NCBI GenBank assembly: GCA_965207145.1
Contig: OZ242262.1
Span: 1,352,827 to 1,416,826 of the forward strand
Direction: 5' to 3'
DNA: 64,000 bases
Source of the DNA: Dehalococcoidia bacterium
GTDB lineage: Bacteria; Chloroflexota; Dehalococcoidia; Lucifugimonadales; UBA2962
Every line of letters starts with the position of its first letter. The stretch's first letter is position 1. Below are positions 2,312-64,000 of this stretch, piece after piece. Position numbers and translations under genes: made by a program. The notes below the pieces were generated by a model that searched no databases, was not told the DNA's origin, and was given only the letters and a program-made list of their open reading frames with translations.

Positions 2312-2674
2312 AACGTCATCAGTCTTCTCAACTGGCCGTCGACTTCTAAAACGTCGTGGAGACCGCCGAGTTACCTGGGCGGCCCGCAAGTCTCGCCTGC
2401 CCATCCGGGTTCCGCAGTCCTCAGCACGGGAAGCAGGCCCCGACTGCGAGCCCGACGATCGCCTAGCACGAGTCTACTGCATCGACCTGCGGGTTCGGAG
2501 GAATTTGTGGGGTCCGTTCAGGCATGGACTTTGAGGCTACGGCCCTTCAGTATCCTTCCTGTCAACATGATCTTTCCTTGCCAATCGGCTGGCCGGCGGC
2601 GCATGCTCACCGATCTCGGCCGGCACCGGTCACGGGCCGCAAGAGATCAGGTCGACCAGGGGTGACATGAACCG

Positions 2675-3409: not shown

Positions 3410-3624
3410 CTCTCTGCTTGGCAACCCGACGGACCGGATCGTTGGTCACGAACTCTCCCGCCTTGAGTGCGCCTGGGGCAGGGTGGACCCCTTGAAAGCC
3501 GTTACGTTTCCGGCCTTAGCTTCTGAGTCGTTTTCGCTAGCAGGCCGCAGGCGTATAGACTGATATTTCACCGGGCGGACAGTCCCGCCGGAAGCAATCT
3601 GACTCCAGGGAGCACGAGCAAGCC

Positions 3625-4422
3625 ATGCCGGAAGTTACATCGCACGCCCACGGCGCACCATCATGGGCCGACCTTTCCACCACCGACGAGTCGGCGGCCC
3701 TTTCCTTCTACGCCGCGCTGTTCGGATGGGCGGACGAACCTCAGGAAATGGGGCCGAACAGTTACTACCACTTACAAAAGGTCAATGGCCGCTCCGCCTG
3801 CGCCATCTACCAGCAGAGCGAGGAGGAGCGGAGCCAGAACGTCCCCTCCCACTGGAACATATACATCACGGTAAATGACGTGGAAGAGGCCGCGGCCGCC
3901 ATTCGCAAAAACGGCGGTCAGGTTGTATTCGGGCCCATGGACGTATTTGAGGCCGGCCGCATGGCGATGTGCCAGGATCCCCAGGGGGCCTTCTTTGCCG
4001 TGTGGCAGGCAAAAGAGCACATCGGCGCTGAAATCAAGGGCGAGACCGGGGCCATGTACTGGCATGAACTGCTGACGACCGACAGGGCCGGCGCCTTAGA
4101 GTTCTACAAGGCGGTGTTCGGACTTGAGAGTTTCCAGGTTCCGGAATCGCAACTGGACTACGTGATGCTGCGGACCGAGGGGACCGAGGTGGCCGGGGTC
4201 CTTCAGATCACCCCAGAAATGGGCGAATTCCCGCCCCACTGGTCGGTCTACTTCGGAGTAGAAAGCGCCGACGCCACGGTCGAGCAGGCCAGGTCGCTGG
4301 GCGCGGCGGTATACGTGCCGCCCACCGATATCGTTCCGGTCGAGGGCAACCCTGCCATGGGCCGCTTTTCGTCGCTGGCTGATCCACAGGGCGCTTCTTT
4401 TTCGATCTTCGAATCAGCCTGA
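3625..4422 (+). CDS. VOC (glyoxalase/bleomycin-resistance/dioxygenase) family protein with two tandem domains
   Basis: The repeated pattern 'SWADLSTTD..AALSFYAALFGW' and 'YWHELLTTD..GALEFYKAVFGL', with 'GRMAMCQDPQGAFFAVWQ' and 'GRFSSLADPQGASFSIFE', is typical of two-domain VOC proteins. Confidence 0.8.
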   Translation: MPEVTSHAHGAPSWADLSTTDESAALSFYAALFGWADEPQEMGPNSYYHLQKVNGRSACAIYQQSEEERSQNVPSHWNIYITVNDVEEAAAAIRKNGGQVVFGPMDVFEAGRMAMCQDPQGAFFAVWQAKEHIGAEIKGETGAMYWHELLTTDRAGALEFYKAVFGLESFQVPESQLDYVMLRTEGTEVAGVLQITPEMGEFPPHWSVYFGVESADATVEQARSLGAAVYVPPTDIVPVEGNPAMGRFSSLADPQGASFSIFESA

Positions 4423-4473
4423 AGGACCCGGGGCAGCAGGTCTCTTCGACGGCTCGGCCTGTAAGCTCCCGCC

Positions 4474-6039: not shown

Positions 6040-6147
6040 GCTCGCTACCTCCTGCCGCTAGGTTCCAAGGCCCTCCGAAGGCCACCAGAGTCGGAGCCCC
6101 CCTTCTCCACCCTGAAGTGTCGCGCTGCGGCTAAGCCGGGGCGACCC

Positions 6148-7821
6148 CTAGGTAAGCCTGTAGAGACGATTGAGGGGCACCTGCGTAACAGCCTCGGAGG
6201 TCACCGGCACGTCGTCCACGGTCACCTGTGCAGCCTGCCCGTCGACCTCTATATGCGGGCTCACGCTGTTGTGGAGCATCGCGCCCTTCCTGACTGTCCG
6301 GACGCCCGCCACTGGCCTCAGGCCCCTGGCTGTCCTGAGTCGACGACTAAGACCCGACTCGATCGAATCGGAGGACACGAACAGGGCGCTCAGGGCAGAC
6401 GGGTTGATGCCGATGCCCCCGAACATGGGTCCGTACGAGGTTGGCTCAGAGCCTGGCACCGTGGCGTTTCCCTCGCCCATCGGTCCCCAGGCTACGAAGC
6501 CTCCCTTCATCACCACTTCGGGCTTGATGCCGAAGAAGGCCGGTCGCCAAAGGACCACGTCGGCCATCTTGCCCGCCTCCAGTGATCCGACGTGGTCGGC
6601 GATGCCGTGGGTGATGGCAGGATTAATCGTGTACTTGGCGATGTACTGGCGGATCCGGTCGTTGTCGTTGTCGGGGTTCACCGCACCGCGCTCGGCCTTC
6701 ATCTTGTGCGCCAGTTGCCAGGTGCGGGTAATGACCTCGCCGATCCGACCCATCCCCTGTGAGTCGGAGTTGATGACCGGTATGGCGCCAAGGTCGTGCA
6801 GGACGTCCTCGGCGGCCATCGTCTGTTGTCGAAGCCTGCCGCCCAGCGCAGCTGCGTCCGACGGGATACTCAGGTCGAGCAAATGGCAAATCACGGTCAT
6901 CGCGAAGTGCTCCTGCAACGTGCCAACCGAGTACGGCAGGGTGGGCGTCGTCGAAGACGGGATGATGTTGTCGACACCCGCCATAGTCAGCAGGTCGGGA
7001 GCGTGGCCGCCCCCGGCTCCCTCGATGTGGTAGGCATGCACTGCTCGACCGTCGATTGCCTCGATGGTGCCGCGCACGTCGGCCGATTCCTGCAGTCCGT
7101 CCGTGTGTAGCGCGACCGAGACGTCGGCCTGCTCGGCGATCCGCAGGCAGGTGTCGATAACGTTGCCGTAGGCGCCAAGGTCCTCATGGATCTTAAAGCC
7201 GCACGCCCCGGCCTCGATGCTCTCTTCCATGGGGAGCGGGCTCGTGGCGCTTCCGGAGGCCTGGAGCCCGAGGTTGACAGGCAGGTGCTCGAATGCCTCG
7301 AAGGAGCGCTGCAGGATGAGCTGGCCGTTGTCGAATACGCCGCCGCCGATGAGGGTGGTGATTCCGGCCGCCAGTGCCGCCTCCACCACCCTGGGGGTCA
7401 CTATGTGAACGTGACTGTCGACCCCGCCGGGGGTGGCGATCATGCCGACCCCGCTGATGATTACGGTGTTTGCTCCGATCTCGAGATCGACCTCGTCCAT
7501 GATGTCGCCGCTGCCGGCGCGGCCGATTCCGACGATCAGCCCGTCTTTGACCCCGATGCTGCCCTTTCGCACCCCCAGCACCGGATCGACGATGACCACT
7601 CCCGCGATCACGTAGTCAAGGTCCGAGGCCCGGGTGCGGCGGTGGGCCATGAGCATGCCGGCCCGGATGTTCTTGCCCCAGCCCAGCAGCGCCTCCTCGC
7701 CGTACTGAGTCGAATCCGACTCCACCTCGGCCACGATGTTGGTGTCACCGAGCCTGATGCGGTCACCAGTCGTCGGACCGTAGGTCCCCGCATAGCGGTG
7801 TCGGTCGATCTCAAACGGCAT
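6148..7821 (-). CDS. ureC: Urease alpha subunit
   Basis: N-terminus 'YGPTTGDRIRLGDT', 'GGVDSHVHIV' (HxH), 'GFKIHEDLG' (carbamylated Lys position), 'ALHTDGL', 'YHIEGAGGGHAPD', 'VICHLLD' and 'NSDSQGMGRIGEV'. All canonical active-site positions are recognisable. Confidence 0.92.
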   Translation of the reverse strand: MPFEIDRHRYAGTYGPTTGDRIRLGDTNIVAEVESDSTQYGEEALLGWGKNIRAGMLMAHRRTRASDLDYVIAGVVIVDPVLGVRKGSIGVKDGLIVGIGRAGSGDIMDEVDLEIGANTVIISGVGMIATPGGVDSHVHIVTPRVVEAALAAGITTLIGGGVFDNGQLILQRSFEAFEHLPVNLGLQASGSATSPLPMEESIEAGACGFKIHEDLGAYGNVIDTCLRIAEQADVSVALHTDGLQESADVRGTIEAIDGRAVHAYHIEGAGGGHAPDLLTMAGVDNIIPSSTTPTLPYSVGTLQEHFAMTVICHLLDLSIPSDAAALGGRLRQQTMAAEDVLHDLGAIPVINSDSQGMGRIGEVITRTWQLAHKMKAERGAVNPDNDNDRIRQYIAKYTINPAITHGIADHVGSLEAGKMADVVLWRPAFFGIKPEVVMKGGFVAWGPMGEGNATVPGSEPTSYGPMFGGIGINPSALSALFVSSDSIESGLSRRLRTARGLRPVAGVRTVRKGAMLHNSVSPHIEVDGQAAQVTVDDVPVTSEAVTQVPLNRLYRLT

Positions 7822-7872: not shown

Positions 7873-8280
7873 TCAAGCCTTCGCCTGTCCTGTGTCGCGA
7901 AACCCGGCCGATCTCAGCATGGTCAGGGCGGTCTCGACGTCGTCGAGAGCCCCGTTCACAAAGCCCTGAAAACCGTGAACATGCCTTCGGCCGGCTAGAG
8001 GTATGAGGTCGACCGTCGTTTCTTCGCCCGGTGCCCAGCGCACGCCCGTGCCCGCTGCCACGTCCAGGCGCATCCCGTACGCCGCTCTTCTGTCGAAGGC
8101 CAGGTCCCTGTTCGCCTCGAAGAAGTGGTAGTGGGAAGACACGTAGACGACCCTGTCGGACTCGTTCCTGACGCTAACCGACCTTGTCTCCCGCCCTTCA
8201 TTTACAGTGAGCTTGCCAGCCGCCACGATCACCTCGCCTGGCTTTGGCATCGTCCCTTCTCCCATCGGCGTGTGAGCCAC
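7873..8280 (-). CDS. ureB: Urease beta subunit
   Basis: 'PGEVIV..LTVNEGRE..VSVRNESDRVVYVSSHYHFFEANRDLAFDRRAAYGMRLDVAAGTGVRWAPGE'. The GTG at 8280 overlaps the ureA stop by 1 nt. Alternative ATG starts lie at 8265 and 8250. Confidence 0.9.
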   Translation of the reverse strand: MAHTPMGEGTMPKPGEVIVAAGKLTVNEGRETRSVSVRNESDRVVYVSSHYHFFEANRDLAFDRRAAYGMRLDVAAGTGVRWAPGEETTVDLIPLAGRRHVHGFQGFVNGALDDVETALTMLRSAGFRDTGQAKA

Positions 8281-8582
8281 TATCTGATCGGATCGTCGAT
8301 TACGAGCAGCTTGGTACCGCTGTCGAAACCCGCTTCGACCCTTATCGGATCGGCCAGTTCGGCCACACCCTCCAGCACCTCGTCGGCGGTGAGGATCCGG
8401 CTGGCCAGCTCGAGGACCTCTTCGTAGCTCCTTCCGGCCCTGGCCTCCTCCATCACCTCATCGCAGATCAGCGCCACGGCCTCCGGGTGGTTGAGCCTTA
8501 TGCCTCTCGCCCGTCTGCGCCGGGCCATCTCAGCCACCGAGAAGATTGTGATCCTATCCATCTCCCTTGGAGTGAGCCTCAT
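8280..8582 (-). CDS. ureA: Urease gamma subunit
   Basis: 100 aa reading 'MRLTPREMDRITIFSVAEMARRRRARGIRLNHPEAVALICDEVMEEARAGRS', a canonical UreA pattern along its whole length. Confidence 0.92.
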   Translation of the reverse strand: MRLTPREMDRITIFSVAEMARRRRARGIRLNHPEAVALICDEVMEEARAGRSYEEVLELASRILTADEVLEGVAELADPIRVEAGFDSGTKLLVIDDPIR

Positions 8583-8817
8583 GTTTGTGCTCCTCTAGCT
8601 CGTTGCGGTCCACCCTAAGGTGGCCCTTCGTGAAGGTCAACGGTTGGAAGGGATTTCTGCCGGAGTCGGCCGTCTCGGGTCAACGAGCATCAGGCAGGAA
8701 CCGCCAGCGAGGTAGGCGCTGAGCCCTGCGATCTGGTGATCCGGCTGGCGCGGCCCTCGGCTCGGGAAGTTGAAGGTGACCGTCCTTGAGCCGGGCTTTC
8801 GCACCGCCACAGGTCGG

Positions 8818-9369
8818 CTATACGACCTCAAGTCGATGATGGGGTCGGGAAGGCAGCTCGATGGAGATGGAATCGCCCGATTTGACTTCGCCCCCCGCAA
8901 GCACGATGGACATGACTCCGGCTTTGCGGACAAGGCCGCCATCGGGATCGCGTTCTAGGACAGCCGCCATCAGTCCCGGCTCAAGTCCATCGAGCTGCCT
9001 GCATGGATTGCGCAGTCCGGTTATCTCAACCACCGCGGCTTCGCCGAGCGTCAATCTGGTTCCGCGCGGCAATTCTAGGAGGTCGATGCCGCGGGTGGTT
9101 ATGTTCTCTCCCATCTGCCCGGCCGCCACCCGGAAGCCGGCCTCACTAAGTTCGTCGTGCAGCTCGGCGTGGATCAGGTGCACCTGCCTCAGGTTGGGCA
9201 GGCTCGGATCGCGGGCCACGCGCGACCTGTGCTTGACCGTTGCGCCGCGGTGTGCGTCATCTTCTACTCCCACGCCAGCGAGCAGCCGGATGCGGCTTCG
9301 GTTCGGTTTGGCCATCGAATGCGTTGGACTACTGCTCACCGCCTCAACCATCCCCCTGCCGTCAGACAT
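8818..9369 (-). CDS. MOSC domain-containing protein
   Basis: 'MGENITTRGIDLLELPRGTRLTLGEAAVVEITGLRNPCRQLD' carries the conserved MOSC Cys context. The true start may be an internal Met. Confidence 0.75.
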   Translation of the reverse strand: MSDGRGMVEAVSSSPTHSMAKPNRSRIRLLAGVGVEDDAHRGATVKHRSRVARDPSLPNLRQVHLIHAELHDELSEAGFRVAAGQMGENITTRGIDLLELPRGTRLTLGEAAVVEITGLRNPCRQLDGLEPGLMAAVLERDPDGGLVRKAGVMSIVLAGGEVKSGDSISIELPSRPHHRLEVV

Positions 9370-9810
9370 GCTTGCGCCCTGGCCGCCGGTCCGCCAGACG
9401 GTCGCCGCAACGACCGCGCCGCACGATCAACGACCTAGCCTTAGGCCGTCCATTCCGAGCCTTTTCTTTACTTCTCATTTCCCGCGAACACCGAATTAAG
9501 CGAGCCAGAGCCTACATTAGCGAACCGGCGAGGGGAGCCGCTCGCCTGGGTCAATTTATCGCAGCCTCCGTACATACCCTAACTTCTATAAGGGGAGTCA
9601 ACCGAGTGCGTGCAGCCTCATGGTCTATGCGGAGGGTAGGTGCAGCCCCCGGACGATCAACGGGCGAGGCCGGCACGTTAGAGAAATTCGTGGTCCCGGT
9701 GCAGCGCTTTCTCGCATCGTAGATTTCGGCCCAAGGGAGGTCGGTTAACCTTGAATTACAGGGGAAGGCAGGTGCGAAAGAGGGTGGGTCTGTCTCCACA
9801 GGGAGGATAG

Positions 9811-10608
9811 TTGCTGCTCGTCGTTCTTATTGCAGGCTTATTCGCCGGCCTGGTGTCGGGTGTGGCGGGTATGGGGGTAGCCATAGCGGCCCTGCCGGTC
9901 CTGCTGTACGGTCCGGAGCTGTTCGGCATCGAGCCCCTGTCGGTGAAGGAGGTGACCGGCCTGACCGTCGTGCAGAGCTTTGCCAGCGGCGCCGTCAACA
10001 TCGTCCGCCACAGGTCCGCCGGTTACGTGCACCGACCTCTGGTGCTCTGGGTCGGGCTGCCTGCCGGTGCGCTCGCTTTGGGCGGGGCACTGGCATCCAC
10101 GTTTCTGCCAGACGCGGCGATCCTGGCGACGATGGTGGGCATGGCGTTGGCTGCCGCAGCGGTAATGCTATCTCCCAGCATTCTGAGGGGGCGGGCCAGC
10201 GGGCCTGGCGACGACGGATGGTCAGGCGAATCCGAGCCGCCCGATGTCGATAGGGTTAGAGCACTTACCGTGGGCGCCGTCGTGGGGGGAGTGGGCGGCA
10301 TCTCGGGCCTTCCGGGCGCGTTCTTGATGGTGCCGCTACTCATATTTGGACTGGGGATACCGACAAGGCTGGCGATCGGCAGCAATCTTGGAATCATGCT
10401 GTTCGCTTCGGGCGCCGCATTCATCGGCAAACTGGGTGGCACCCTGGTACCTGCGGTCCCGGCCCTTGTGATAGTCGGCAGCACAATGGTCGCGACACTG
10501 CTGGGGTTCGAGATCAACCGGCGACTGAGCGCCCGACATCTCAGGTGGCTGCTGGGCGCGCTGGTAGCGGCAACCGCGGTACGGGTGCTCTTGGACTTGC
10601 TCGGCTAG
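9811..10608 (+). CDS. TauE/SafE-family (sulfite exporter-like) membrane protein
   Basis: A polytopic Gly/Ala-rich membrane protein with 'GLVSGVAGMG' and a duplicated half, typical of TauE/SafE. TTG start as called; the exact start is uncertain. Confidence 0.7.
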   Translation: MLLVVLIAGLFAGLVSGVAGMGVAIAALPVLLYGPELFGIEPLSVKEVTGLTVVQSFASGAVNIVRHRSAGYVHRPLVLWVGLPAGALALGGALASTFLPDAAILATMVGMALAAAAVMLSPSILRGRASGPGDDGWSGESEPPDVDRVRALTVGAVVGGVGGISGLPGAFLMVPLLIFGLGIPTRLAIGSNLGIMLFASGAAFIGKLGGTLVPAVPALVIVGSTMVATLLGFEINRRLSARHLRWLLGALVAATAVRVLLDLLG

Positions 10609-10743
10609 GGGAGCGATACCCGCGCGGAGGGTAGGATCGGCCCTCCATGTTCGAGGGGCGTGAGAGCGCGGTAAGAGACCTCAGCTTGGCTCGAATGGCC
10701 CTGGAGGGACCCGGCCTGGCCGAAAAGCGGCTGTCTGGAAAAC

Positions 10744-11055
10744 TCAACGCAGCGGCATCCTGACGGCCCGCTCCAGGTTGGAAAGGTAGTCGCTGAAGGC
10801 GCGGCGCCCCTCTGGCGTTGCCTCCACCCAGGTGCGAGGCTTGGCCTTTAGGAATTCCTTGGTGGTGGCAACAAATCCCGCCTCCTCAAGCTTACGGAGA
10901 TGGATGGTGAGGTTGCCGCCGGTCAGGTCCAGAGTCTTCTGGATGAAACCGTAGGCCAGCCGGTCGGTCTCGGATTGGTGCGCCAGCATGGTCATGATGC
11001 GGAGCCGGGTGGATTGGTGGATCGTTTCGTCTAGGACGATCGGACCGTCTTTCAT
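10744..11055 (-). CDS. Winged-helix transcriptional regulator
   Basis: Only the last 103 codons of the 316-aa ORF look real: 'MKDGPIVLDETIHQSTRLRIMTMLA...LDLTGGNLTIHLRKLEEAGFVATTKE...W'. The ATG at 11055 overlaps the upstream gene's stop by 4 nt (ATGA). Confidence 0.7.
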   Translation of the reverse strand: MKDGPIVLDETIHQSTRLRIMTMLAHQSETDRLAYGFIQKTLDLTGGNLTIHLRKLEEAGFVATTKEFLKAKPRTWVEATPEGRRAFSDYLSNLERAVRMPLR

Positions 11056-11687
11056 GCGGTGCCGCTCCTGCGAATCCAGACCCAGGCTATGGCCACCACC
11101 ACCACCATCATCGCGGCAGATACAACCAGCGCGGCGTCGCCAGCAAAGTGGTCTGGAATATAGAAAGCCGCAGCTATGCCCAGCCCCACGAGGGCGATCG
11201 CCGGGTGGTGCATGATGCCGAAGAGGATGTACCCCAGCGACACGATCCCAATGGCGATACCGCCGATCGCCTTGCCGTCGGCCTCTGCGGTCCACAGCCC
11301 GGATGCAGCCGGGACTATGAAGGCGGCCGCCACAACCGAAATCCAGAACGCGAATACTCGCAGGCCCACGCTGGTGGCGGTGGGACCTGCGGCGTTGTCG
11401 CGGCTGGCCCGGTACCCGATCATGGAGCTTGCGACCATGCCCACAAGGCCCAGGCCGCCCCACAGGGGTCCCGGAAACCACGGGAAGTCCTCGGCAAAAC
11501 CGGTCGCGTGGGTGTCCACGGCAAACTGCGCAACGAAACCGATGGCGACGATGGCGCCCCACATCAGCATGATGGTCGGCCATCCGGCCACGTACATCGA
11601 ACTCCGGGACCTTTCCAGGGTCGCCTGTATCGACTCCCAACCCTCGTTGGGACTTATCCGTTCTCTTTTGACCTCTCCGCCCTGCAT
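11052..11687 (-). CDS. Hypothetical multi-pass membrane protein co-transcribed with the wHTH regulator
   Basis: 211 aa with about 6 hydrophobic helices. It shows 4-nt translational coupling to the regulator. No family recognised. Confidence 0.6.
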   Translation of the reverse strand: MQGGEVKRERISPNEGWESIQATLERSRSSMYVAGWPTIMLMWGAIVAIGFVAQFAVDTHATGFAEDFPWFPGPLWGGLGLVGMVASSMIGYRASRDNAAGPTATSVGLRVFAFWISVVAAAFIVPAASGLWTAEADGKAIGGIAIGIVSLGYILFGIMHHPAIALVGLGIAAAFYIPDHFAGDAALVVSAAMMVVVVAIAWVWIRRSGTA

Positions 11688-12066
11688 GCATCACCTCGTA
11701 TTTTGTCGCTACAAACTAGTTTATAACACAAACTCATAGGGTTGAAAAGTACGTTGGTAGGCTGACTGCCGGTCCTCGCGTTCAGATTGGTCGATCGGCC
11801 AAGGGCCTGCTGCCCCGGACTCGCGGCCGTGAGGGTGGATGGCCATCGTGGGCATCGGATTCGAAATCGATCAGATAAATCGGCTCAAATGTCAGCAAAC
11901 CACCGGTTGCTGAATCTTTTGTGCAATAATGCGCGCGGGACTCGATCGGTGCCAAAGCGGTGCGAGAACGGCCTGTCGGCTGGCGGGTCCCTTCTGCAGA
12001 GCCTGGCAGGCCCTTTCGGTCCGCAACCGTGCCGGTTGGTCTGGACTAGTTAGGGAGGTCGGGACC

Positions 12067-13818
12067 ATGAAGCGACTCTTGATCGTTTTGGCATGTACCC
12101 TCGTCGGCTCAATCGCCGCGGCGGCATGCGCGGGCGAAACCGAGGTTGTGGAGAAGATCGTCGAGGTGCCGGTGGTGGAGGAGGTGGTCAAGGAGGTTGA
12201 GGTCGAGAAGATCGTCGAGGTGGAAAAGGAGGTGGTGAGGGAGATCGAGGTCGAAAGGGTAGTTGAGGTCGAGGTCGAAAAGCTCCTCATCGCCACGCCC
12301 ACCCCGCCTCCGGCGACGGGCGAGCCTCAATTCGGCGGCACACTGAGGATCGTCGCGCAGGCCAGCATAAACAGCCTGGATCCTGCCCACGACGGGGCCT
12401 ACGTGGCCGTCGCGGTGGGCTCCCATATGTTCGAGGGGCCTCTCGGTTGGGACCTCAATCTGGCTGATGGCCCCCGGATGGCCGATGAGTGGAGGATCAG
12501 CGACGACGGTCTCACTTGGACCTTCACCTTGCGGCCCGGGATGATGTTCCACAACGGTGAGCCGGTCACCGCACAGGACGTGGTGACCTCCTTCGGGCGC
12601 TACCTGAACGGTGCGCATTCGACGGCCACGCTGATGCATGAGTTCACAGACAACGAGAACCAGTTCACCGTCATCGACGATCTCTCGTTCGACGTGAACC
12701 TGGTCACACCCTACGGGGCCGTGGCTGCAGGCATTGCCAGGCCCTTCGGCAGCGTCTACGTCATGCCCCACAGCCTCATTCATTCCACGACTCACACCGC
12801 GCCGACGCCCGAGTACGTGGGGTCGGGTGCATACGAGTACGAGGACTGGAGGCAGGGCGACAGGGTGACCCTGAAGCGGTTCGAAGGCTACGTTGCCAGG
12901 GGCGAGGCGAACAGCCTTTACACCGGAAAACAGACCGCCTACATAGACACCCTCATATGGCTGGAGATCCCGGACGAAGAGACCAAGATCGCCGGCCTGG
13001 AAACGGGAGAGTGGGACATTGTGGACGGTGCGGGACTTGATTTCTTCAAGCGACTCAATGAGGACCCCGACTTTGTGGTGCCCGTGTACAAGCCCGGTCA
13101 TCGATCGGACTTTCGCCCGTGGGCCGGTTTCCCGCCCTTTGACGACCTCCTAGCCAGGAGAGCCCTCCAGGTTGGAATGGACATCGAGGCGACGATGTTC
13201 GCCCTGGGCGGCAGGGACCTCTGGGATCTGTGCCCCGCCGTCTTCTACTGTGGCACCCCGCTTGAGACCGACATAGGCGCCGACCAGTACTACAACCTCA
13301 ATGACAAGGAGCTGGCGCGCGAATTGGTCGCCCAATCGTCCTATGACGGTGAGACCGTCGTACTGCTCAACCCCAGCGACTACGCCACCATCACCCCGGT
13401 GGGCATCGTGGTAAAGCAGGAAATAGAGGATATGGGGTTCAACGTCGAGCAGCCGGCCCTGGACTGGGCGACGGTCATAAGCACCTTCGGCGAAGAACGC
13501 AGCACCAGATACGCCGGTCTGACGGCCTGGGCGTCCCACTGGTGCTGCGGTGAGCCGCTCAGCGACTTCTATCTGGACGGCGACGGGTGGTTCACGGCCA
13601 AGATCCCCGAGCTGAAGCGACTCCGGATCGAGTACGCTCAGGCCACCGACCAGGCGGAAAGATTCGCGATCGCAGAGCAGCTTCAGCTCGAGGCATACAA
13701 GAACGTGGTGATCGTCTACCTGGGCACCTGGTACGCGATATTCCCTCACACGACGGCACTCAAGAACTTCCAGGTCAAGGCGTTCCCCTACTATGCGAAC
13801 GTCTGGCTCGAACGCTAG
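12067..13818 (+). CDS. ABC transporter substrate-binding lipoprotein, family 5 (peptide/nickel, DppA/OppA-like)
   Basis: GGGAGG lies upstream of the ATG at 12067. Lipobox 'LACTLVGSIAAAAC', then a Glu/Val-rich tether. The mature part begins 'PQFGGTLRIVAQASINSLDP', typical of SBP_bac_5. The upstream 46 codons of the listed ORF are probably not translated. Confidence 0.85.
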   Translation: MKRLLIVLACTLVGSIAAAACAGETEVVEKIVEVPVVEEVVKEVEVEKIVEVEKEVVREIEVERVVEVEVEKLLIATPTPPPATGEPQFGGTLRIVAQASINSLDPAHDGAYVAVAVGSHMFEGPLGWDLNLADGPRMADEWRISDDGLTWTFTLRPGMMFHNGEPVTAQDVVTSFGRYLNGAHSTATLMHEFTDNENQFTVIDDLSFDVNLVTPYGAVAAGIARPFGSVYVMPHSLIHSTTHTAPTPEYVGSGAYEYEDWRQGDRVTLKRFEGYVARGEANSLYTGKQTAYIDTLIWLEIPDEETKIAGLETGEWDIVDGAGLDFFKRLNEDPDFVVPVYKPGHRSDFRPWAGFPPFDDLLARRALQVGMDIEATMFALGGRDLWDLCPAVFYCGTPLETDIGADQYYNLNDKELARELVAQSSYDGETVVLLNPSDYATITPVGIVVKQEIEDMGFNVEQPALDWATVISTFGEERSTRYAGLTAWASHWCCGEPLSDFYLDGDGWFTAKIPELKRLRIEYAQATDQAERFAIAEQLQLEAYKNVVIVYLGTWYAIFPHTTALKNFQVKAFPYYANVWLER

Positions 13819-56771: not shown

Positions 56772-57089
56772 TCATCTGCCGCCCAACGGGGTCGCTTCTC
56801 GTCGCTGCACACGCTCTGCGATCCGCGGACCAGACTCGATTTCCGCCACGCGCAGCTCGAATGCTTTCTGAAGGTTCTGCCATAGTTGGGGCGTGGTGCC
56901 GAAGTACCGGGCAAGGCGAAGAGCCGTATCAGCCGTCACTCCCCTCTGTCCCTTCAGAATTGCCGTGATTCGATTCGTGGGTACATCAAGAGCCTTGGCG
57001 AGCGCGTTAGCCGACAACCCAAGCTCCTCGAGCTCCTCAGCCAATATCTCTCCGGGGTGGACCGGCCTCATTCCGTTGCTTGTACTCAT
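56772..57089 (-). CDS. higA: HigA-family antitoxin (XRE HTH)
   Basis: 'VHPGEILAEELEELGLSANALAKALDVPTNRITAILKGQRGVTADTALRLARYFGTTPQLW' is the canonical HigA pattern. The ATG at 57089 lies 10 nt after the higB stop. Confidence 0.85.
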   Translation of the reverse strand: MSTSNGMRPVHPGEILAEELEELGLSANALAKALDVPTNRITAILKGQRGVTADTALRLARYFGTTPQLWQNLQKAFELRVAEIESGPRIAERVQRREATPLGGR

Positions 57090-57099
57090 GTCCAACTCC

Positions 57100-57381
57100 T
57101 CATCGGTGGTAATCCACGACCTCCACGTCGTACGGTCCGTCATCTTCCCAGCGGAAGCATATTCGCCACTGGCGGTTGATCCGGATGCTGAACTGGCCCG
57201 TCCGGTTGCCGGAGAGAGCCTCCAGCCTGTTGCTGGGCAATCCGGCCAGATCTTGTAAGGAGGAAGCGTTGTCCAATACTGTGAGTCGACGCGTCGTCTG
57301 ATCAGCGAACCCATGGAAGGCCGGCACCAACTGGCCCTCAAAGAACCTCTCGGTTCTCCGATCTTTGAAGCCTCGGATCAT
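57100..57381 (-). CDS. higB: HigB-family toxin (RelE/ParE superfamily, plasmid maintenance killer)
   Basis: 'MIRGFKDRRTERFFEG...LPSNRLEALSGNRTGQFSIRINRQWRICFRWEDDGPYDVEVVDYH'. Confidence 0.85.
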   Translation of the reverse strand: MIRGFKDRRTERFFEGQLVPAFHGFADQTTRRLTVLDNASSLQDLAGLPSNRLEALSGNRTGQFSIRINRQWRICFRWEDDGPYDVEVVDYHR

Positions 57382-57477
57382 TGTAACGTCTTACGTAAAG
57401 AGTAAACAAGATTTTACCATGCGGGAGGAGGATCCGCGCGTGGGGGGCCTCGATCTGAAGTGCCCAGGCGTAAGCCC

Positions 57478-57963
57478 CTACCGTGGCCGATGACTGATCC
57501 TCAGTCTGTCGGTCGAATTCTCATTGACCACAGCTATAGGTGGTGACCATTTTGGATGATAGGCAGATGAGTGAGCGACCTGAGCCCACGCCAGAGCACC
57601 TACCGCGCCCGATGGTAGCGCCCAACAGACGAAGTGGAGGGCGTCGTGGCACCAGTGGATGGTGAAGTAAAGGTCCAGGGCACTCCCGACGGAGTCGAGA
57701 AGGAAGGGCAGGGTGATGAGAATACATATGGCCAAGGGGTATACCGCCCTTAGGCCAGAGAAGACCCAGACCGCAGGGACCGCCAGAGCGGCTACCGGAT
57801 ATGCGGCCAGTTGCTAGGGTAAGGTCTTGAGTTCGAACAGCTTCAGTCCGTAATAGGCTCCGAACGCCAGCAGAGCGACTGAGGCCGCCTTGAGGACAAG
57901 ACTGAACCAGGAGGCGATTACGCGGCGGGCAGAAGTGGTGGTCGATGGGAGTCCCAACGCCAT
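57478..57963 (-). pseudogene. Hypothetical 4-TM membrane protein gene interrupted by one in-frame TAG (57814-57816)
   Basis: Hand translation from ATG 57963 reads 'MALGLPSTTTSARRVIASWFSLVLKAASVALLAFGAYYGLKLFELKTLP*QLAAYPVAALAVPAVWVFSGLRAVYPLAICILITLPFLLDSVG...'. The frame stays hydrophobic and coherent on both sides of the stop. Confidence 0.45.
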
Positions 57964-58421
57964 CTTCCCAGGGTGCCGGATCGTCCGACGTAGCCGTTTA
58001 CTGGCAACGGTGCTGACGGCATGGTACAGGTGACCGACCGACCTCGAGCCCGCTTGGTAAAGGGATCAGGTGCTCTCCGGCTGTTCGGGCGCAAACTGAA
58101 CTATCAGGGAAACTCGGCGCCCCGTCCGCCATTCACGTGGTCTTGTCCCAGTCTTCGCGCCAACTGCAGTTAGTCATGAGGCGTACTGATCCACCCATTA
58201 GGGGTTTCGGTCCATGACGCCTCAATCGACTTGAGACATGGTGGGCAGCTGAGTGGAAACAACGCGCTGGGATGCGCAACTGTAGCTGACCTCGTTGTAC
58301 ATCTGCCTGTAGTGAGCCGCTAACACCTTCACCGACGGCATCGTGTAGAAGATCTCCCTATCCAATATCTCGTCCCTGAGCTTGCCGCTGCCTCTCCAAT
58401 GCCATCGACTATCCCGCTTCG

Positions 58422-59186
58422 ATGGCGCCTCATCTCATATGCAGGGATCAACTCGAGGCCAGCGCCTTGGCCCACGCCGCAGATCGGCTTGGGATGATTG
58501 TAGGTCGACTTGATGACCAAGGCGTAGAGGCACGGATCAAGACCACCGTTGGACGACCCGCAGAGGAGATTCTCCGTGTTGCCGACGAAGAGGGATGTGG
58601 CCTAATAGCGATGTCGACCCATTGCAAGAGCGCTCTGGGCCGGACGATCATGGGCAGTGTGACCGACAGGGTGATCCACGCCTCGTCCGTGCCTGTACTG
58701 GCGATTGCGCCGGAGAAGGCAAAGGCGTATCAAGGGCGAGGGGCGGTTCCTCTAAAGACGATCATGCTTCCGCTGGACGGTTCGCAACTCGCCGAACAGG
58801 CGGTTCCCTACGTTGAGGCGCTGGCCAGATCTCTTTCGCTTGAGATTCTCTTGGTGAGGGTCGTGGATCTTGAGGGCCCGGTCTTCGCATACCCATCAAA
58901 CGAACAGTTGGCCAGGTTCAGAGACGATCGCAACGGCGAGGCGGCGAAGTATCTGGAGGGTGTGTCCCGGGACCTGAAGGGCAGAGGGCTTAGGGTTCGG
59001 ACCACGGTGCTGCTAGGATCGCCGGCACAGACCCTCTTGGACCTTACCCACCGGACGCCGAACGACCTGATCGCAATGACGACGCACGGGAGGTCCGGGT
59101 TGTCAAGGTGGCTTGCAGGGAGCGTGGCGGAGGCGTTGATACGCGCCTCCGGCGATCCGGTGCTGGTGGTGCGATCACGCTCGTGA
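58422..59186 (+). CDS. Universal stress protein with tandem UspA domains (first domain N-terminally short)
   Basis: Domain 2 is complete: 'IMLPLDGSQLAEQAVPYVEALA...GSPAQTLLDL...DLIAMTTHGRSGLSRWLAGSVAEALIRASGDPVLVV'. Domain 1 retains only 'GRPAEEILRVADEEGCGLIAMSTH..LGRTIMGSVTDRVIHASSVPVLAI'. Confidence 0.75.
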   Translation: MAPHLICRDQLEASALAHAADRLGMIVGRLDDQGVEARIKTTVGRPAEEILRVADEEGCGLIAMSTHCKSALGRTIMGSVTDRVIHASSVPVLAIAPEKAKAYQGRGAVPLKTIMLPLDGSQLAEQAVPYVEALARSLSLEILLVRVVDLEGPVFAYPSNEQLARFRDDRNGEAAKYLEGVSRDLKGRGLRVRTTVLLGSPAQTLLDLTHRTPNDLIAMTTHGRSGLSRWLAGSVAEALIRASGDPVLVVRSRS

Positions 59187-59230
59187 CGAGTGTCCATCCC
59201 CCATTTTGAGGGTGCGTGTCAATTGGTTCT

Positions 59231-59279
59231 ATCTTCAGTCACCGAAAGCCGAAAATGTGGGCTGTCGGTGACTGAAGGT
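59231..59279. terminator. Strong hairpin (13-bp perfect stem, 19-nt loop) at the core/island junction; possible usp terminator
   Basis: 'cttcagtcaccga' (59233-59245) pairs perfectly with 'tcggtgactgaag' (59265-59277). It lies 47 nt after the usp stop, with a 'cttttc' stretch shortly after. Confidence 0.4.
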
Positions 59280-59664
59280 AGAACTTTTCAATACGTCGTA
59301 TCATTTTAGGCTTGAGCGCCGTGCATGTGGTGGTAAACGTATCCAGAGCGATTCGTTGGCGCGTTCGTGATGCTGAAATCCGCTCAGTCTGTCTCCAGAA
59401 TCGTGTATTCCTACAGCTTTTCTCGAACGTTCCCTGACCTAGGTGCTCGTCAGACTGAGCGCCCCATGTCGCCCTCGCGGCCGCCTCCGTCAAATTCCCT
59501 GAGGGCACGGAATCGGATAAGTGATGCCGAACGTTGCGATCGGGACGTCAACCCCTGAGCATCCGATTTGACAGTCGATGCGTGGGTCGCTGATCAATTC
59601 TGAATCAGGATCGACAGAGTCGTCCTTGAGGTTCAATGCCGTTGCGGGACGGCTTGGTCCTCAT

Positions 59665-61290
59665 CTACTGAACAGACTTGGTTGAGAATCTGTAGTTGCT
59701 GCGGCTACCCCGGAGTATTCGTGTGAACTGTTCATGAATGAGTGTCTCTGCGGTCCCTGGAGTGCCACTCAAGGCATCAGCGAGGGCCCTCCCCCAATCT
59801 TCCCCCTTGGTGAGCTGAACGCTACGGAGCACCCAATAAGCTTTGCGCAAGGCTGCAAATCCTACGTTCTCACCATGTAGCGAAGCATCTAAATCCGACA
59901 AATGGAGAGGCTCGATATCGGCGTTCAACGCATTGGTGGCCATTAGCATTGTTTCCAAACTGAAGTTTTGATCTTCAAAGTTCGGCTTGGAGATTGCGTA
60001 GCCTCCCGGCAACAGACCAGAATTCGACATATTCTCTAGCACCCGGTGACGTTCAACATACTGATCGTCAGCGTCAACTGTCATTGCAACGAAGACCTCC
60101 TCCTCTTGGCTCAGGATTAGTAAATCCCGTACCAGCGGATCTTCCAGTTTGCCGACGCCTTTCAGATCAAGCAGTTCGATCCCTGCGCGCTCCAGGCTCA
60201 CATGCCGGCGTTCCGCCCATCGCTCGATGAATCCCATCTCTGTTGCCCCCTCGACCAACCATCGGACACGAGGCTGCGGGTCGAGATCGTATTGTCGGAC
60301 GACATTCCTAAAAACCGATCGGTTGCCGTCGGTTGTGGTTTGGCTTCCAAAAAACCGTTCCTTATAGTCGGGAACCTGCAAATCTAGGCGGACGAGGTCC
60401 TCGTCTGGCAGATCAGTCACGCCATGATGTTTCGCGAGGTAGCGGCGCAGCACCTCCGCCTGATAGTAGCCGTCCTCAGCGCGAAGCGCCGCACCCTTGA
60501 GCGTGAGGCGCTTTTCGCGAGGCACATAGGCGATCAGTTCGCGCCAATTGCTTAGAGGATCGCTAAGTTCCGCATCGATGGCGAGCTTGTTGTGCCAGCG
60601 CCGCATCATATCCACGCTGCTGTGATTTGCCGTTAGAACGTCATCGTGGTCGATTTCTTGGCGCCAAGCGATCAAACCCTCGATGGTTTCATTTTGAAAC
60701 GGGTCCGTCTTGATTCGACCAATTAGGGTCTCAATTACCAGCGGCTCTGCGGCTAGGAGCATCCCGACAATGGAGAGTGATTCGGACCATGGCTCGCTAG
60801 CTGCCAAATTCCCCAATTTCTCCCGCAGGTCGAGACGCTGCAGTCGCTCAATTCGTTTCTGGTAGGCGTCTGGATCGTATAGGCCTTGGTAGAAGGCTAC
60901 GTTGAGGTCCAAATAGGTTGCTATCCGACTCGCCCGCCAAAGTTGAAACGGATGCCACCAAGATCGGCCTAATTCGAAATTGGTCGGAGCCTGATCACAT
61001 AACTGTTTGAATTCAGGGGTCTGCCCTCGATCCCCGTACACACATCCGAGCCCGTCGATCTCAACAGGAACAAATCGATCCTTACTCGCCGAGTCGGGAG
61101 GAACTTCCCAGGCGATAGGCGGGAAAACACCTTCGCTGGCTAAGAAGAGGAGCGCTTGAGAGCTGATGTTGACGTTCCGCGCCTCCAACCAGCGAACGAA
61201 TTGTCGCGCCTCCATGGGCGGCGTCTGTCGGTATGGAGCTCCAAGAGCATTGTCGACGATGGAGGCAACGAGAGAGTCGGGTATATCCAC
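59665..61290 (-). CDS. Orphan 541-aa protein: unrecognised helical N-terminal region plus a Toprim-like C-terminal module
   Basis: Long uninterrupted ORF in low-GC DNA with ordinary, non-Arg-biased composition. 'RVRWLVEGATEMGFIERW' and 'VFVAMTVDADDQ' about 55 aa later resemble the Glu...DxD layout of Toprim domains (OLD/DUF4276/RloB-like). No ATPase motif was seen. Confidence 0.6.
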   Translation of the reverse strand: MDIPDSLVASIVDNALGAPYRQTPPMEARQFVRWLEARNVNISSQALLFLASEGVFPPIAWEVPPDSASKDRFVPVEIDGLGCVYGDRGQTPEFKQLCDQAPTNFELGRSWWHPFQLWRASRIATYLDLNVAFYQGLYDPDAYQKRIERLQRLDLREKLGNLAASEPWSESLSIVGMLLAAEPLVIETLIGRIKTDPFQNETIEGLIAWRQEIDHDDVLTANHSSVDMMRRWHNKLAIDAELSDPLSNWRELIAYVPREKRLTLKGAALRAEDGYYQAEVLRRYLAKHHGVTDLPDEDLVRLDLQVPDYKERFFGSQTTTDGNRSVFRNVVRQYDLDPQPRVRWLVEGATEMGFIERWAERRHVSLERAGIELLDLKGVGKLEDPLVRDLLILSQEEEVFVAMTVDADDQYVERHRVLENMSNSGLLPGGYAISKPNFEDQNFSLETMLMATNALNADIEPLHLSDLDASLHGENVGFAALRKAYWVLRSVQLTKGEDWGRALADALSGTPGTAETLIHEQFTRILRGSRSNYRFSTKSVQ

Positions 61291-61504
61291 GGCGAACGAA
61301 TTCCAGGCAACGGCGGTCTCGAGCTGTTAGATGAGCAAAGTGCCGCTTACATGGTAAGACAGTTGTCGGACACCCTAGTGATTCGCAACCCTAATTCTGA
61401 CCTCGCTGGCTTCGCCGAGGAAATGACTTGGGCAGTTGACCCAAGCGTCTATATCTCATTTTCTGGGCAGGTGATATGACAAGCTAGGCGTTTGGAGACT
61501 CCGA

Positions 61505-62100
61505 TCTCGCGTCTCGCAGGCTTGACCCTGCCCTTCCCACTCTGACCGATACGTGTTGCCTTGGCCGCTTCGGTCCTAGCCACAGCCCCTCCATGCGGTA
61601 GAGCCTGTAGACTCTCTCGCGATTCACCTTCCATCCTCAGCAGCATGTGGATACGCAGGCGTTCATAGCTCACCCGCGATTCCGCAAGGTCCTTGATCCC
61701 CAACCTCAGAGCAGTCTGTTCAGAGGCCGCGCCCTCGTACCTGCAGGTCGAGCGCGCTAGCGTCAGCGCCCGGTACCCGTGGGCATTGGCTAGGGTTGAA
61801 TTCTGATTTTCCTCCGATACGACCCCCGGCGCCTGTGTACGTCCAGTTCGAGTTCTTCGACGCCCTTGCCTGATGACGAAAGCGATGTCCAGCGGCCTGT
61901 CCGCTAGCTCAGCGGCCATCGCCGGCGTTCTCAGGCTCCCGTGCGGCCGGCAGAAGCTGTAGTGCGTCAAGAACAGGGCGGTGGAGTACCAGTGGTAATG
62001 CACACTCCTGGAGAAGGCACTGGTCAGCCGCGTATACCGCCTAACGCGCATCCCCAGACTTTGAGGCTCCTGTATCAGACGACACGTCCCGCAGCTTCGA
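61505..62100 (-). mobile_element. Nested insertion-sequence debris: IS1-family transposase C-terminal fragment followed by an IS3-family OrfB N-terminal fragment
   Basis: One 240-aa ORF is chimeric. 'RRYTRLTSAFSRSVHYHWYSTALFLTHYSFCRPHGSLR.TPAMAAELADRP' resembles the IS1 InsB tail. 'YRALTLARSTCRYEG....ALRLGIKDLAESRVSYERLRIHMLLRMEG' resembles an IS3 OrfB head. No intact DDE domain is present. Confidence 0.5.
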
Positions 62101-62887
62101 TCTCTCTCTGCGCAAGGCGCCCGAGGAACGTGCCGAGATCTTGGCCTGCACCGTCGCCGGCCAGATCGCACACGGCTGCACAGTCGAGTCGCTGAGCTAT
62201 CTCATTGCGGTGCCGAACCGACGTCGCCGAGGCAATCACATCCGGTATCTCATCCTGACAGCCCTGATCTTAAGGGTCCGGGGTCTCAACTAGCTTGGCC
62301 TGTTCGCCTTCGGGGACGAGACAAGTGAGATGTTGACCGTGGACGGCCGGCGCAACTCCTCGACTGCAGGTCTGAGACACAGCCATCAGCCTGCTATCAT
62401 GATCCCCTGAGACCGAGGTTTCGATTCCGACCTCTCCGCATGTGGAACTGGGACCAGTATCCTCGGTTATCTGGGCACACGTGGTTCGTGAGCGCCGAAA
62501 GTCTCTAATGCGGAGGATTTGGGTGACAAGCCTGCTGATGGCGGCAAGCACAGTTCTCGGGATTGTCACACGGGCTAGCGGCAACAATTTCAGCCCACTC
62601 CTCCACGGACTTCGGAGTGCCCCTAAGCTAGGGATCGGGGGCACAGTTCGTCTCTTCATGGCTTTACCAGCAGGATCCGCCAGGTAGATTGGAGAGCTGT
62701 CGAATGGCTGCGGACCCGTGCGAACCTATGAGCACGTTCAGACAGATGCTGCGGCGTCATATGACCGGTCTGCACTCTTGCGTCGAGTTGAAGAGTCGTT
62801 GTTGAGAAAGAGTGCTCGCTCCCCATTGAGCACTACCAAGAAGGACAACTGCGAAGAAAATCGTCCAACCCTCATAAGGCGAAAGAA

Positions 62888-64000
62888 ATGAACGTACAGA
62901 TGGGCCCTGAGGGTCAAGTCGCCAAGGTGACTGCCGTCAGCAACGACGGAGCCAGAGTCTATATAGAGTACAAGAATGGAATCACTGGCTGGTTCGACCA
63001 GCCCACGCCCGAGTTCAAGCGCGGTGATGTCCTCCTGATAGCTACCAGTGAAATGGGTCCAACCCCATACGTGATACCAAGTGATGTTTGGCCAGATAAC
63101 GTTTGGGTTGGGGTAGTCAAGATAAAACTCGAAGACATCACGGTCATAGAAGCCAACGGTAGATTTCGCACAGTGCCGACAAGTGACCGCGTAGACTATA
63201 GACCCGACTATACCGTTCAAGCTAACGACCTTGATGGAGTAGTGCGAGTTCTATCTGAGAAAGGCATCAAATACATCGACCTTCATTCTGAGATTGATGA
63301 CCAAACCATAGACCGCTTTCTGTGGACTGCTCCAGAAGGGGAACTCTTGGACTTCGATGATTTCGGAGGATTAAGACCAGTCGTAGATAGAGCCAAGGAG
63401 CTAATTGAATTGACACTCTTGCGCGGTAATGAATTGTCCGCAATCGGGGTGCCTCCCATTAAGGGCGTTCTCTTCACTGGCGAGCCAGGTACCGGCAAAA
63501 CTATGCTGGCGCGAATCATCGCATCACAGTCGGACGCAGCTTTCTTCGAGATTTCAGGACCGGAAATCTTTAGTAAATGGTATGGTCAAAGCGAAGAATT
63601 GCTCAGGAGGATCTTCGAACGAGCTGCGCAGGAGGAGAAGGCTATAATATTCTTCGACGAGATCGACAGTGTTGCCAGCCAAAGGGATGATCAGTCTCAT
63701 GAAGCCTCAAGGCGGGTAGTCGCACAGCTCCTTACACTGATGGATGGATTCACTAGAGACGAAAACGTTGTAGTCATAGCTGCCACTAACAGGCATGAGG
63801 ACCTAGATCACGCGCTCCGACGCCCGGGGCGCTTTGATTGGGAGATTGAATTCCCTTTCCCGAACGAACTAGACCGACTAGACATACTTAAGAAGACGGC
63901 ACGTGGGAAGCGAATAACAGGCGTCCTGCCTTACGAAGCAGTTGCGAAAGTTTCCGAAGGATGGTCAGGTGCCGACCTCACCGCCATCTGGAAAGAAGCT
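62888..64000 (+). CDS. Classic-clade AAA+ ATPase (CDC48/FtsH-like module) with an unrecognised N-terminal domain of about 150 aa; 3' end outside the window
   Basis: Not in the supplied ORF track because it has no stop in the window. Hand translation from ATG 62888 stays open for 371 codons to position 64000. Walker A 'GEPGTGKT', Walker B 'IIFFDEID' and second region of homology 'ATNRHEDLDHALRRPGRFD' are present. Confidence 0.85.
   Translation, partial: MNVQMGPEGQVAKVTAVSNDGARVYIEYKNGITGWFDQPTPEFKRGDVLLIATSEMGPTPYVIPSDVWPDNVWVGVVKIKLEDITVIEANGRFRTVPTSDRVDYRPDYTVQANDLDGVVRVLSEKGIKYIDLHSEIDDQTIDRFLWTAPEGELLDFDDFGGLRPVVDRAKELIELTLLRGNELSAIGVPPIKGVLFTGEPGTGKTMLARIIASQSDAAFFEISGPEIFSKWYGQSEELLRRIFERAAQEEKAIIFFDEIDSVASQRDDQSHEASRRVVAQLLTLMDGFTRDENVVVIAATNRHEDLDHALRRPGRFDWEIEFPFPNELDRLDILKKTARGKRITGVLPYEAVAKVSEGWSGADLTAIWKEA

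Follow-up and report, generated by a model that had tools for sequence, protein, structure and literature searches.

Whether an ATPase gene and a nuclease-like gene that lie side by side in foreign DNA make up one defence system or two is the question raised by the right-hand end (59,187-64,000) of a 64,000-nt stretch from a Dehalococcoidia bacterium (assembly GCA_965207145.1, contig OZ242262.1, positions 1,352,827 to 1,416,826 of the forward strand), here called the window. Made from the sequence without database searches, the original prediction placed at this end a low-GC island with an orphan 541-aa Toprim-like protein, debris of insertion sequences (IS) and a divergently oriented AAA+ ATPase with a novel N-terminal domain, and proposed that the ATPase and the nuclease-like protein are paired in an undescribed anti-phage system. 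In our reading, the island is a mosaic of horizontally gained DNA that resembles a defence island. Its two main genes belong, with high probability, to two unrelated cassettes, one of which carries the Toprim gene, while in the other the AAA+ ATPase is partnered with a DUF6414 protein. Judged from sequence, a defence function for these cassettes may be proposed tentatively, with slightly less than even weight. Taken as a whole, anatomy and function together, a defence-island-like mosaic with two independent cassettes is the account that we consider rather probable.

Independent occurrence of the two genes

The idea that the AAA+ ATPase and the Toprim protein are two parts of one new defence system, comparable to AriA/AriB or to a split GajA, draws on their position as divergent neighbours in one low-GC island and on the behaviour of ATPase-less OLD-type Toprim proteins such as AriB, which normally act with a separate ATPase (PMC12409363). 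Searching by tblastn with both window proteins, we found no homologue of the 541-aa protein at any of 80 AAA+ loci (±8 kb) and no AAA+ homologue at any of the six Toprim loci with full flanks (±8-10 kb); the gene maps of ten further Toprim loci, mostly short contigs that were not screened by tblastn, show no adjacent ATPase partner. Within the window, 1.6 kb filled by IS1/IS3 debris and what is left of a SAVED-domain gene lies between the two genes, and the blocks of DNA homology to other genomes end separately, at 61,290 for the Toprim cassette and at ~62,630 for the AAA+ cassette. The partners of OLD-type Toprim proteins are, moreover, ABC (ATP-binding cassette) ATPases and not classic AAA+ proteins. 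Because the two genes do not co-occur and the AAA+ protein has an invariant partner of its own, DUF6414, we conclude that they are not partners, and we regard a single system built from both as very improbable. A failure of the two proteins to occur together elsewhere was one of the outcomes that the original prediction had itself named as refuting it. For genome scanning in general, the lesson is that adjacency within one island is weak evidence for functional pairing.

The AAA+ gene and its DUF6414 partner

Pfam confirms the divergent gene as a classic AAA+ ATPase (Table 1), and the locus does run past 64,000, as had been anticipated: a full-length protein that is 100% identical (P0026) has 403 aa, of which 32 residues fall outside the window. 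Its relatives in GTDB representative genomes (52 full-length proteins, 46-82% identical over the whole length, N-domain included) come from Dehalococcoidia, Caldilineaceae, Acidimicrobiia, Acidobacteriota, Rhodobacterales, Streptomyces and other hosts, a patchy distribution in which 60% identity is kept across Chloroflexota, Actinomycetota, Acidobacteriota and Alphaproteobacteria. At all 52 loci the next gene on the same strand, overlapping or after a short gap, encodes a ~460-aa protein, and these downstream partners match Pfam DUF6414 (E ~1e-44). The closest locus, L087, encodes an AAA+ protein 92% identical to ours and has the DUF6414 gene at 5925-7304. The source contig itself appears to encode a 459-aa DUF6414 protein (P0313; E 3.4e-39), 77% identical to the L087 partner; the contig of P0313 has the same length (3,165,678 bp) as that of P0026 and P0001. 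Given P0313, the pairing at 52 of 52 loci and the arrangement in L087, a DUF6414 gene very likely lies just past the window edge, at a distance of ~100 nt, as the second gene of an operon of which cassette 2 (from ~62,630) would be the promoter-proximal half.

The same pair occurs on Rubrobacter and Haloarcula plasmids, where it is annotated as 'AAA family ATPase' and 'hypothetical protein' and where the ATPases have the same N-domain architecture; the module thus crosses the divide between bacteria and archaea. In Rubrobacter the two genes overlap by 4 nt. On the Rubrobacter marinus plasmid (L098, 4811-7395) the ATPase is 56% identical to P0026 and a SIR2 family gene lies ~6 kb away, and on Haloarcula sinaiiensis pHsi139 (L099, 3747-6332) the ATPase is 34% identical. 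The AAA+–DUF6414 family as a whole comprises hundreds to thousands of clusters from a number of bacterial phyla, and haloarchaeal plasmids carry a more divergent version. Neighbours of the pair are variable and include seven ResIII genes, four integrases, transposases, restriction-modification (RM) methylases and AbiTii.

The DUF6414 partners have no PDB relative by profile search and no NCBIfam match. All 20 partners that were aligned end in I-Y-W at the C-terminus (in P0313, residues 457-459), and an N-terminal LREFxYLD…S motif is likewise invariant among the partners. As speculation, the terminal aromatic I-Y-W, beside a pore-loop unfoldase, might be a handle for docking or engagement. At some close loci the ATPase or the DUF6414 open reading frame (ORF) is in two pieces (L009 8001-10621, L024, L057 and L007 8001-9212); such splits could reflect frameshifting, pseudogenes or errors in long-read assembly, and they hint that the cassette decays frequently.

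Fold and class of the ATPase

A profile of the AAA+ family aligns to both D1 and D2 of Cdc48/p97, in each case over the same query region (142-386). Invariant in the family are the Walker A motif GEPGTGKT, the Walker B motif DEID, sensor-1 N301, the RPGRFD motif and the pore loop K230-W231-(Y232)-G233. By this pore-loop signature, the protein is predicted to be a substrate-threading unfoldase of the classic clade, a single-ring enzyme of the Cdc48/PAN type. The original prediction had named placement in a well-characterised housekeeping family as a result that would count against it; every curated housekeeping model scores far under its cut-off, at 222 bits against 803 for CDC48, 202-212 against 500 for the PAN models and 170 against 600 for FtsH. 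Scores for NCBIfam IteA (104.5 bits, cut-off 510) and pup_AAA (121 bits, cut-off 505) are similarly low, and the ClpA and ClpX models reach only 17-20 bits.

The first ~150 residues had been described as unassignable, which now holds for part of them. Modelled as residues 1-152, the N-domain contains an OB-fold (oligonucleotide/oligosaccharide-binding) beta-barrel at residues 7-70 (Table 1), for which Foldseek returns Csp, eIF1A and the OB domains of Mpa, ARC, PAN and Rpt at probabilities of 0.97-1.0 and weak E values of 0.02-0.2; residues 71-137 remain of low confidence. We do not claim a second OB barrel at residues 71-137, the basis for which was only a sequence pattern and an alignment to the PAN model from residue 111.

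Like PAN, Mpa/ARC, Rpt and Cdc48/p97/VAT, the protein has a classic AAA core, an aromatic pore loop and arginine fingers, and its OB barrel is as in PAN/Mpa/ARC. Unlike the PAN/Mpa/ARC group, it has no coiled coil, its C-terminus (…HQKTDIN) lacks an HbYX/GQYL docking motif and it is coupled to DUF6414 rather than to a proteasome; where Cdc48/p97/VAT have tandem D1-D2 rings and a double-psi-barrel N-domain, it has a single AAA domain in 403 aa.

Such likenesses lend some substance to the explanation that neither cassette is immune in nature, the AAA+–DUF6414 pair being a proteostasis or remodelling module and the Toprim protein a DNA-repair or RNA-processing enzyme, both riding mobile DNA. The AAA+ core is nearest to Cdc48, PAN and FtsH, its OB-fold N-domain resembles that of proteasomal ATPases, some loci of the Toprim family sit among housekeeping genes, and neither cassette is called by PADLOC. 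The explanation fits poorly, however, with scores so far below all housekeeping cut-offs, with a patchy spread across phyla and onto plasmids, and with neighbours that change from locus to locus and often include RM, integrase and Abi genes; in addition, DUF6414 is the signature domain reported for Dodola, and the nearest relatives of the Toprim family are all of the OLD/GajA type. We therefore consider it unlikely and keep to two independent cassettes of a defence-island mosaic.

A large family of Toprim proteins

The 541-aa protein is no orphan. It is a member of an unannotated family of ~1,200 clusters (at 50% identity): a word-indexed search gave 25 close clusters, and an exhaustive profile search gave 1,206 at E ≤ 1e-3 and 347 at E ≤ 1e-30, nearly all of which align end to end and are ~550 aa long. 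As the first 25 residues are kept in homologues, translation probably begins with the GTG at 61,290, which makes the 516-aa database version (P0001) too short. P0001 begins at an internal ATG, and window positions 61,216-61,290 on the minus strand encode conserved residues upstream of it, for example PYRQT and Q22 (108 of 122 members).

The Toprim-like signature seen in the original prediction is upheld by Pfam, by fold matches and by conserved residues, and together these predict, in the C-terminal ~200 residues, a nuclease module of the OLD family that combines a Toprim with a helical domain and has all the residues of a two-metal active site. Among the 122 full-length members, E347, G348, E351 and D406 are invariant and position 350 is always T or S; position 408 holds D in 90 members and E in 15, E439 is kept in 114 and K495 in 95. 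This EGxTE/DxD/E/K spacing parallels residues E400, E404, D455, D457, E508 and K562 of the two-metal site of BpOLD (PMC6755086), with the equivalence of E439 and K495 taken from spacing and not from superposition. The Pfam family OLD-like_TOPRIM (PF20469) is matched above its cut-off by four of ten diverse relatives (24.2-26.6 bits), and PADLOC GajA models match only via the Toprim segment, in up to 9 of 17 members (E 1e-4 to 0.07). With the AlphaFold model (predicted local distance difference test score, pLDDT, 78.5), the best Foldseek matches in the PDB are the C-terminal regions of Xanthomonas and Burkholderia Class 2 OLD proteins (6njx/6njv/6nk8; probability 0.99-1.0; template modelling score, TMt, 0.48-0.54), where 223-229 columns are aligned to regions of ~200 residues at a TMt of ~0.5. 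The best viral fold matches (BFVD) are led by an RloB-like protein and include the DnaG Toprim. A PDB profile search with the Toprim family found nothing.

The N-terminal region (residues 1-335) has no Pfam match even at E ≤ 10, none in NCBIfam, PADLOC or PDB sequences, and no fold match. It is conserved all the same, with H113 in 120 and D244 in 117 of the 122 members, and a regular-expression search found a Walker A motif in none of 121 family members. A MerR-like winged helix at residues 26-90 was considered and dropped, having no Pfam support at E ≤ 10.

Relative to the OLD family (P2 Old, Class 1/2 OLD and GajA), then, the C-terminal Toprim and helical module appears to be the same, with BpOLD and XccOLD as its best fold matches and with a residue pattern like that of the two-metal site in PMC6755086, although the similarity is marginal. 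Those proteins have an N-terminal ABC ATPase, whereas residues 1-340 here have no ATPase match in Pfam, NCBIfam or PADLOC, and a conserved 335-aa region without detectable relatives stands in the place of the ATPase. The likeness to Gabija is limited to the Toprim segment of GajA, and no adjacent UvrD/GajB helicase was seen. AriB of PARIS (phage anti-restriction-induced system; Class 4 OLD), AbiLii and RloB likewise have a Toprim domain without an ATPase in the same polypeptide, but they are ~200-300 aa long and lie beside an ABC ATPase (AriA, AbiLi or RloA), whereas the present proteins are ~550 aa long, and the loci inspected showed no ATPase partner. No DUF4435 match was obtained for the 541-aa protein.

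Genomic setting of the Toprim gene

Window DNA is 77-80% similar to four metagenomic loci (L001-L004), only from 59,522, 59,561 or 59,652 to 61,284 or 61,290. The similarity stops at the Toprim start codon, with nothing common upstream, and delimits a single-gene cassette (Table 1). At other loci, family members keep varied company. Two have a GmrSD gene directly upstream, one lies in an island with HNH, TIR (cyclic nucleoside monophosphate-binding, cNMP-binding), REase-ARP and AbiEii genes, and one lies with two HigBA pairs and a PIN gene. At L096 the Toprim-family gene stands between a ubiquitin-like conjugation operon (1965-4882; DUF2604, Y4jH-like, Prok-JAB and Prok-E2_C/ThiF), which on our own reading is Bil-like, and the gene for a 1,746-aa nSTAND NTPase (7912-13152), so that the locus is a dense defence island.

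No ATPase gene neighbours the Toprim gene in the window or among the annotated flanking genes of L001-L006, L096 and L097, no conserved helicase partner of the GajB/UvrD type was seen beside it in the annotated loci, and the ORF maps of L088-L093, which were not scanned against family libraries, show no obvious partner. Members of a distant branch (~33% identity) have a conserved ORF of ~100-111 aa that abuts or overlaps the Toprim start on the same strand, at seven loci and, marginally, at one more (Table 1); it has the motif RDRRGhxEGxLWS and no Pfam family. This ORF is absent from the window clade and from L005/L006, so that the Toprim gene comes alone in one part of the family and with a second gene in another.

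The toxin-antitoxin-like arrangement of that small upstream ORF is one of several features that would suit selfish modules, that is, one or both cassettes serving addiction or competition against plasmids and rival elements, not against phages. Others are the sharp homology edges of the single-gene Toprim cassette, the HigBA/PIN toxin-antitoxin genes, recombinases and transposases that adjoin the Toprim gene, and the occurrence of the AAA+–DUF6414 pair on plasmids. The window clade, however, has no antitoxin-like partner, and neither protein has a homologue in 50,697 phage records, a result that also rules against a phage origin of the genes. The line between a selfish module and defence is thin and is not one that sequence can separate; we think selfish modules an improbable explanation and retain defence-island cassettes as the preferred one.

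Relation to known defence systems and proposed function

Dodola has been described as a DUF6414 protein together with a Clp-like ATPase, with ~1.96 kb for both genes in S. thermophilus (bioRxiv 10.1101/2024.10.26.620412; PMC11514479). The link between DUF6414 and Dodola rests on two secondary papers, because the text of the Millman preprint does not contain the domain details of Dodola. Set beside Dodola (DolA/DolB; Millman et al. 2022), the pair, as found at related loci, resembles it in a two-gene plan of DUF6414 with a hexameric Clp/AAA-type ATPase and in variable or defence-type neighbourhoods. It differs in that the Dodola ATPase is ClpB-like, whereas ours is a classic-clade Cdc48/PAN-like AAA protein with an OB N-domain, and in being larger (403 + ~460 aa). 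The best PADLOC matches of the AAA+ protein are the IetA models of IetAS (3e-34 to 7e-36), limited to the ATPase core (residues 178-390), but the DUF6414 partner has no peptidase match and is not the S8 protease IetS. Both cassettes are best regarded as variants close to known systems, and neither cassette passes a strict membership test. The earlier statement that the locus matches no nameable system nevertheless goes too far: an OLD-type Toprim protein and a Dodola-like pair can be named.

For cassette 1, we propose that the N-terminal region would sense a trigger or restrain the nuclease, and that the Toprim module would then nick or cleave nucleic acid. The intact two-metal site predicts cleavage that depends on Mg or Mn. 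OLD and GajA cut DNA, and AriB, the ATPase-less effector of PARIS, is described as cleaving tRNA (PMC12409363), so the target could be either. The 541-aa protein could in this way act as a one-gene immune or abortive-infection effector in which the N-terminal region takes the regulatory role that the ATPase would play in OLD proteins, a role suggested for Class 2 OLD (PMC6755086). In cassette 2, the ATPase might remodel or unfold either its DUF6414 partner or a phage protein and so switch defence on.

Several observations weigh against this account. The defence role proposed for both cassettes is argued from sequence, and the place of the DUF6414 gene just beyond 64,000 is predicted from related loci and from P0313. 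The window protein itself scores 21.5 bits against OLD-like_TOPRIM (residues 345-383), under the gathering threshold of 23.2; the Foldseek matches to OLD are weak (E 0.013-0.1, none at E ≤ 0.001); and in two of the eight contexts annotated for the Toprim family the neighbours are ordinary metabolic or housekeeping genes. In the ATPase, residues 71-137 are modelled with low confidence, and against PADLOC only its generic ATPase core matches, to IetA, TRIP13 and mad8 models. Six DUF6414 partners matched no family of PADLOC-DB 2.0.0 even at E ≤ 10. PADLOC 2.0.0 holds Dodola models, and without a match of the partners there, membership in Dodola as currently modelled is not established.

A bolder proposal, which we regard as possible but more doubtful than not, is that the ~550-aa family is an unrecognised OLD-type class in which the ABC ATPase has been exchanged for a 335-residue sensor domain, acting as a one-gene immune effector (with a ~105-aa partner in a sister branch), alongside a Dodola-like system, very common in bacteria and archaea, that relies on a Cdc48/PAN-type unfoldase and is missed by current defence-finding tools. 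If the functional proposals made here are right, two families passed over by current annotation and, in our searches, by PADLOC would join the anti-phage repertoire. An OLD nuclease module would then be controllable without an ATPase, which would bear on how the effectors of OLD, Gabija and PARIS are silenced and released, and the mechanism of Dodola would become easier to approach through the AAA+–DUF6414 pair, with its textbook substrate-threading unfoldase and a partner that ends in an invariant I-Y-W.

Composition and boundary of the island

The low-GC island of the original prediction is borne out by GC windows, tetranucleotide signature and GC at third codon positions (GC3). Over positions 1-59,000, 1-kb windows have a mean GC of 0.618 (sd 0.019, minimum 0.581), against 0.549 for the island at 59,187-64,000 (z -3.6 vs core), 0.546 for the 541-aa gene and 0.508 for the AAA+ gene (z -5.7); the IS debris (61.3-62.6 kb), at 0.592, is near the core value. 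In a strand-symmetrised comparison of tetranucleotides, the island lies at a distance of 0.0246 from the core, whereas 55 island-sized core segments average 0.0123 and do not exceed 0.0160. Island genes have a GC3 of 0.52-0.59 and flank genes one of 0.69-0.78.

At the boundary, the strong hairpin noted earlier (Table 1) proved to have 25-nt arms that are 92% complementary around a 9-nt loop, with a fold z-score of -6.8 and none of 200 shuffles folding equally well. It is probably a terminator, perhaps a bidirectional one, although a simple terminator scan did not call it; the window holds no second copy. Of integration-site signs, a search for a tRNA gene, an Rfam family or flanking direct repeats found none.

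Table 1. Positions of the features discussed, in window coordinates unless another locus is named
Feature	Position	Strand	Evidence or remark
HigB toxin and helix-turn-helix (HTH) antitoxin	56,772-57,381 (HigB 57,100-57,381)	-	Pfam HigB-like_toxin 1.7e-14; HTH_3 2e-10
usp, tandem Usp domains	58,422-59,186	+	Pfam Usp 4.3e-41; GC3 0.69
Boundary hairpin	arms 59,226-59,250 and 59,260-59,284	.	40 nt past usp stop codon
Single-gene cassette: Toprim gene and ~140 nt of conserved 3' flank	59,522-61,290	-	DNA homology to L001-L004
541-aa protein gene, GTG start	59,665-61,290	-	ATPase-less OLD-type Toprim nuclease (predicted)
Nuclease module, Toprim and helical domain, residues ~342-541	59,665-60,267	-	Foldseek, GajA segment matches, conservation
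Conserved N-terminal region, residues 1-335	60,286-61,290	-	Proposed sensor/regulatory part
IS3-family OrfB N-terminal (HTH_21) fragment, frameshifted	61,547-61,730	-	Pfam HTH_21, E 5.2e-9
IS1-family transposase C-terminal fragment	61,863-62,072	-	tblastn to annotated plasmid IS1 transposases
3' remnant of SAVED-domain gene, in-frame stop	62,631-62,798	+	58 aa, 60% identical to end of L087 ORF 4080-4607
AAA+ ATPase gene, cut by window end	62,888-64,000	+	371 of 403 codons in window; Pfam AAA 5e-45
OB-fold beta-barrel, AAA+ residues 7-70	62,906-63,097	+	AlphaFold2 pLDDT 73-92, five strands
Small upstream ORF, distant Toprim branch	L088 1159-1494; L089 414-749; L090 3159-3464; L091 1499-1816; L092 1064-1384; L094 ~388-708; L096 5820-6125; L097 3430-3723		L097 marginal

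Mobile-element remnants and flanking genes

The chimeric stub of IS1- and IS3-type transposases was confirmed on both sides of the chimera, and with it the description of foreign DNA carrying mobile-element scars and defence-type genes. Its IS3 part matches HTH_21 on a peptide with one frameshift corrected, and its IS1 part is 47-49% identical by tblastn to annotated IS1 family transposases on plasmids (E 3e-11 to 1e-10). The remnant of a SAVED-domain gene is the left edge of the sequence common to the window and L087, where DNA homology begins at ~62,630 and amounts to 87% over 1,371 nt; the corresponding L087 ORF (4080-4607) matches Pfam SAVED at 6e-17. SAVED is a sensor domain of the cyclic oligonucleotide-based antiphage signalling system (CBASS) type. 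Only the window and L087 have this piece, immediately before the AAA+ gene, and in this lineage cassette 2 seems either to have inserted into a broken CBASS-like gene or to have moved together with it. A three-gene system of SAVED, AAA+ and DUF6414 proteins is ruled out, the SAVED piece being a remnant common to L087 only.

In the core flank, Pfam matches support the HigBA module of the original prediction; the pair belongs to the flank and is outside both cassettes. The last gene with core composition before the island is usp, the first Usp domain of which appears short at its N-terminus. Between HigB and usp (57,400-58,560) there is no long ORF, and by eye the minus strand at 57.4-58.4 kb holds membrane-protein-like frames broken by stops, in keeping with the two damaged genes of the original prediction. 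Finally, a stretch of ~100 nt immediately upstream of usp (58,286-58,395) is 72.5% identical to L001 9620-9843, a region immediately upstream of the L001 Toprim gene that overlaps a 66-aa ORF (68% identity over 25 aa); the similarity may point to a leftover of some former gene order or to a small element of a mobile or regulatory kind.

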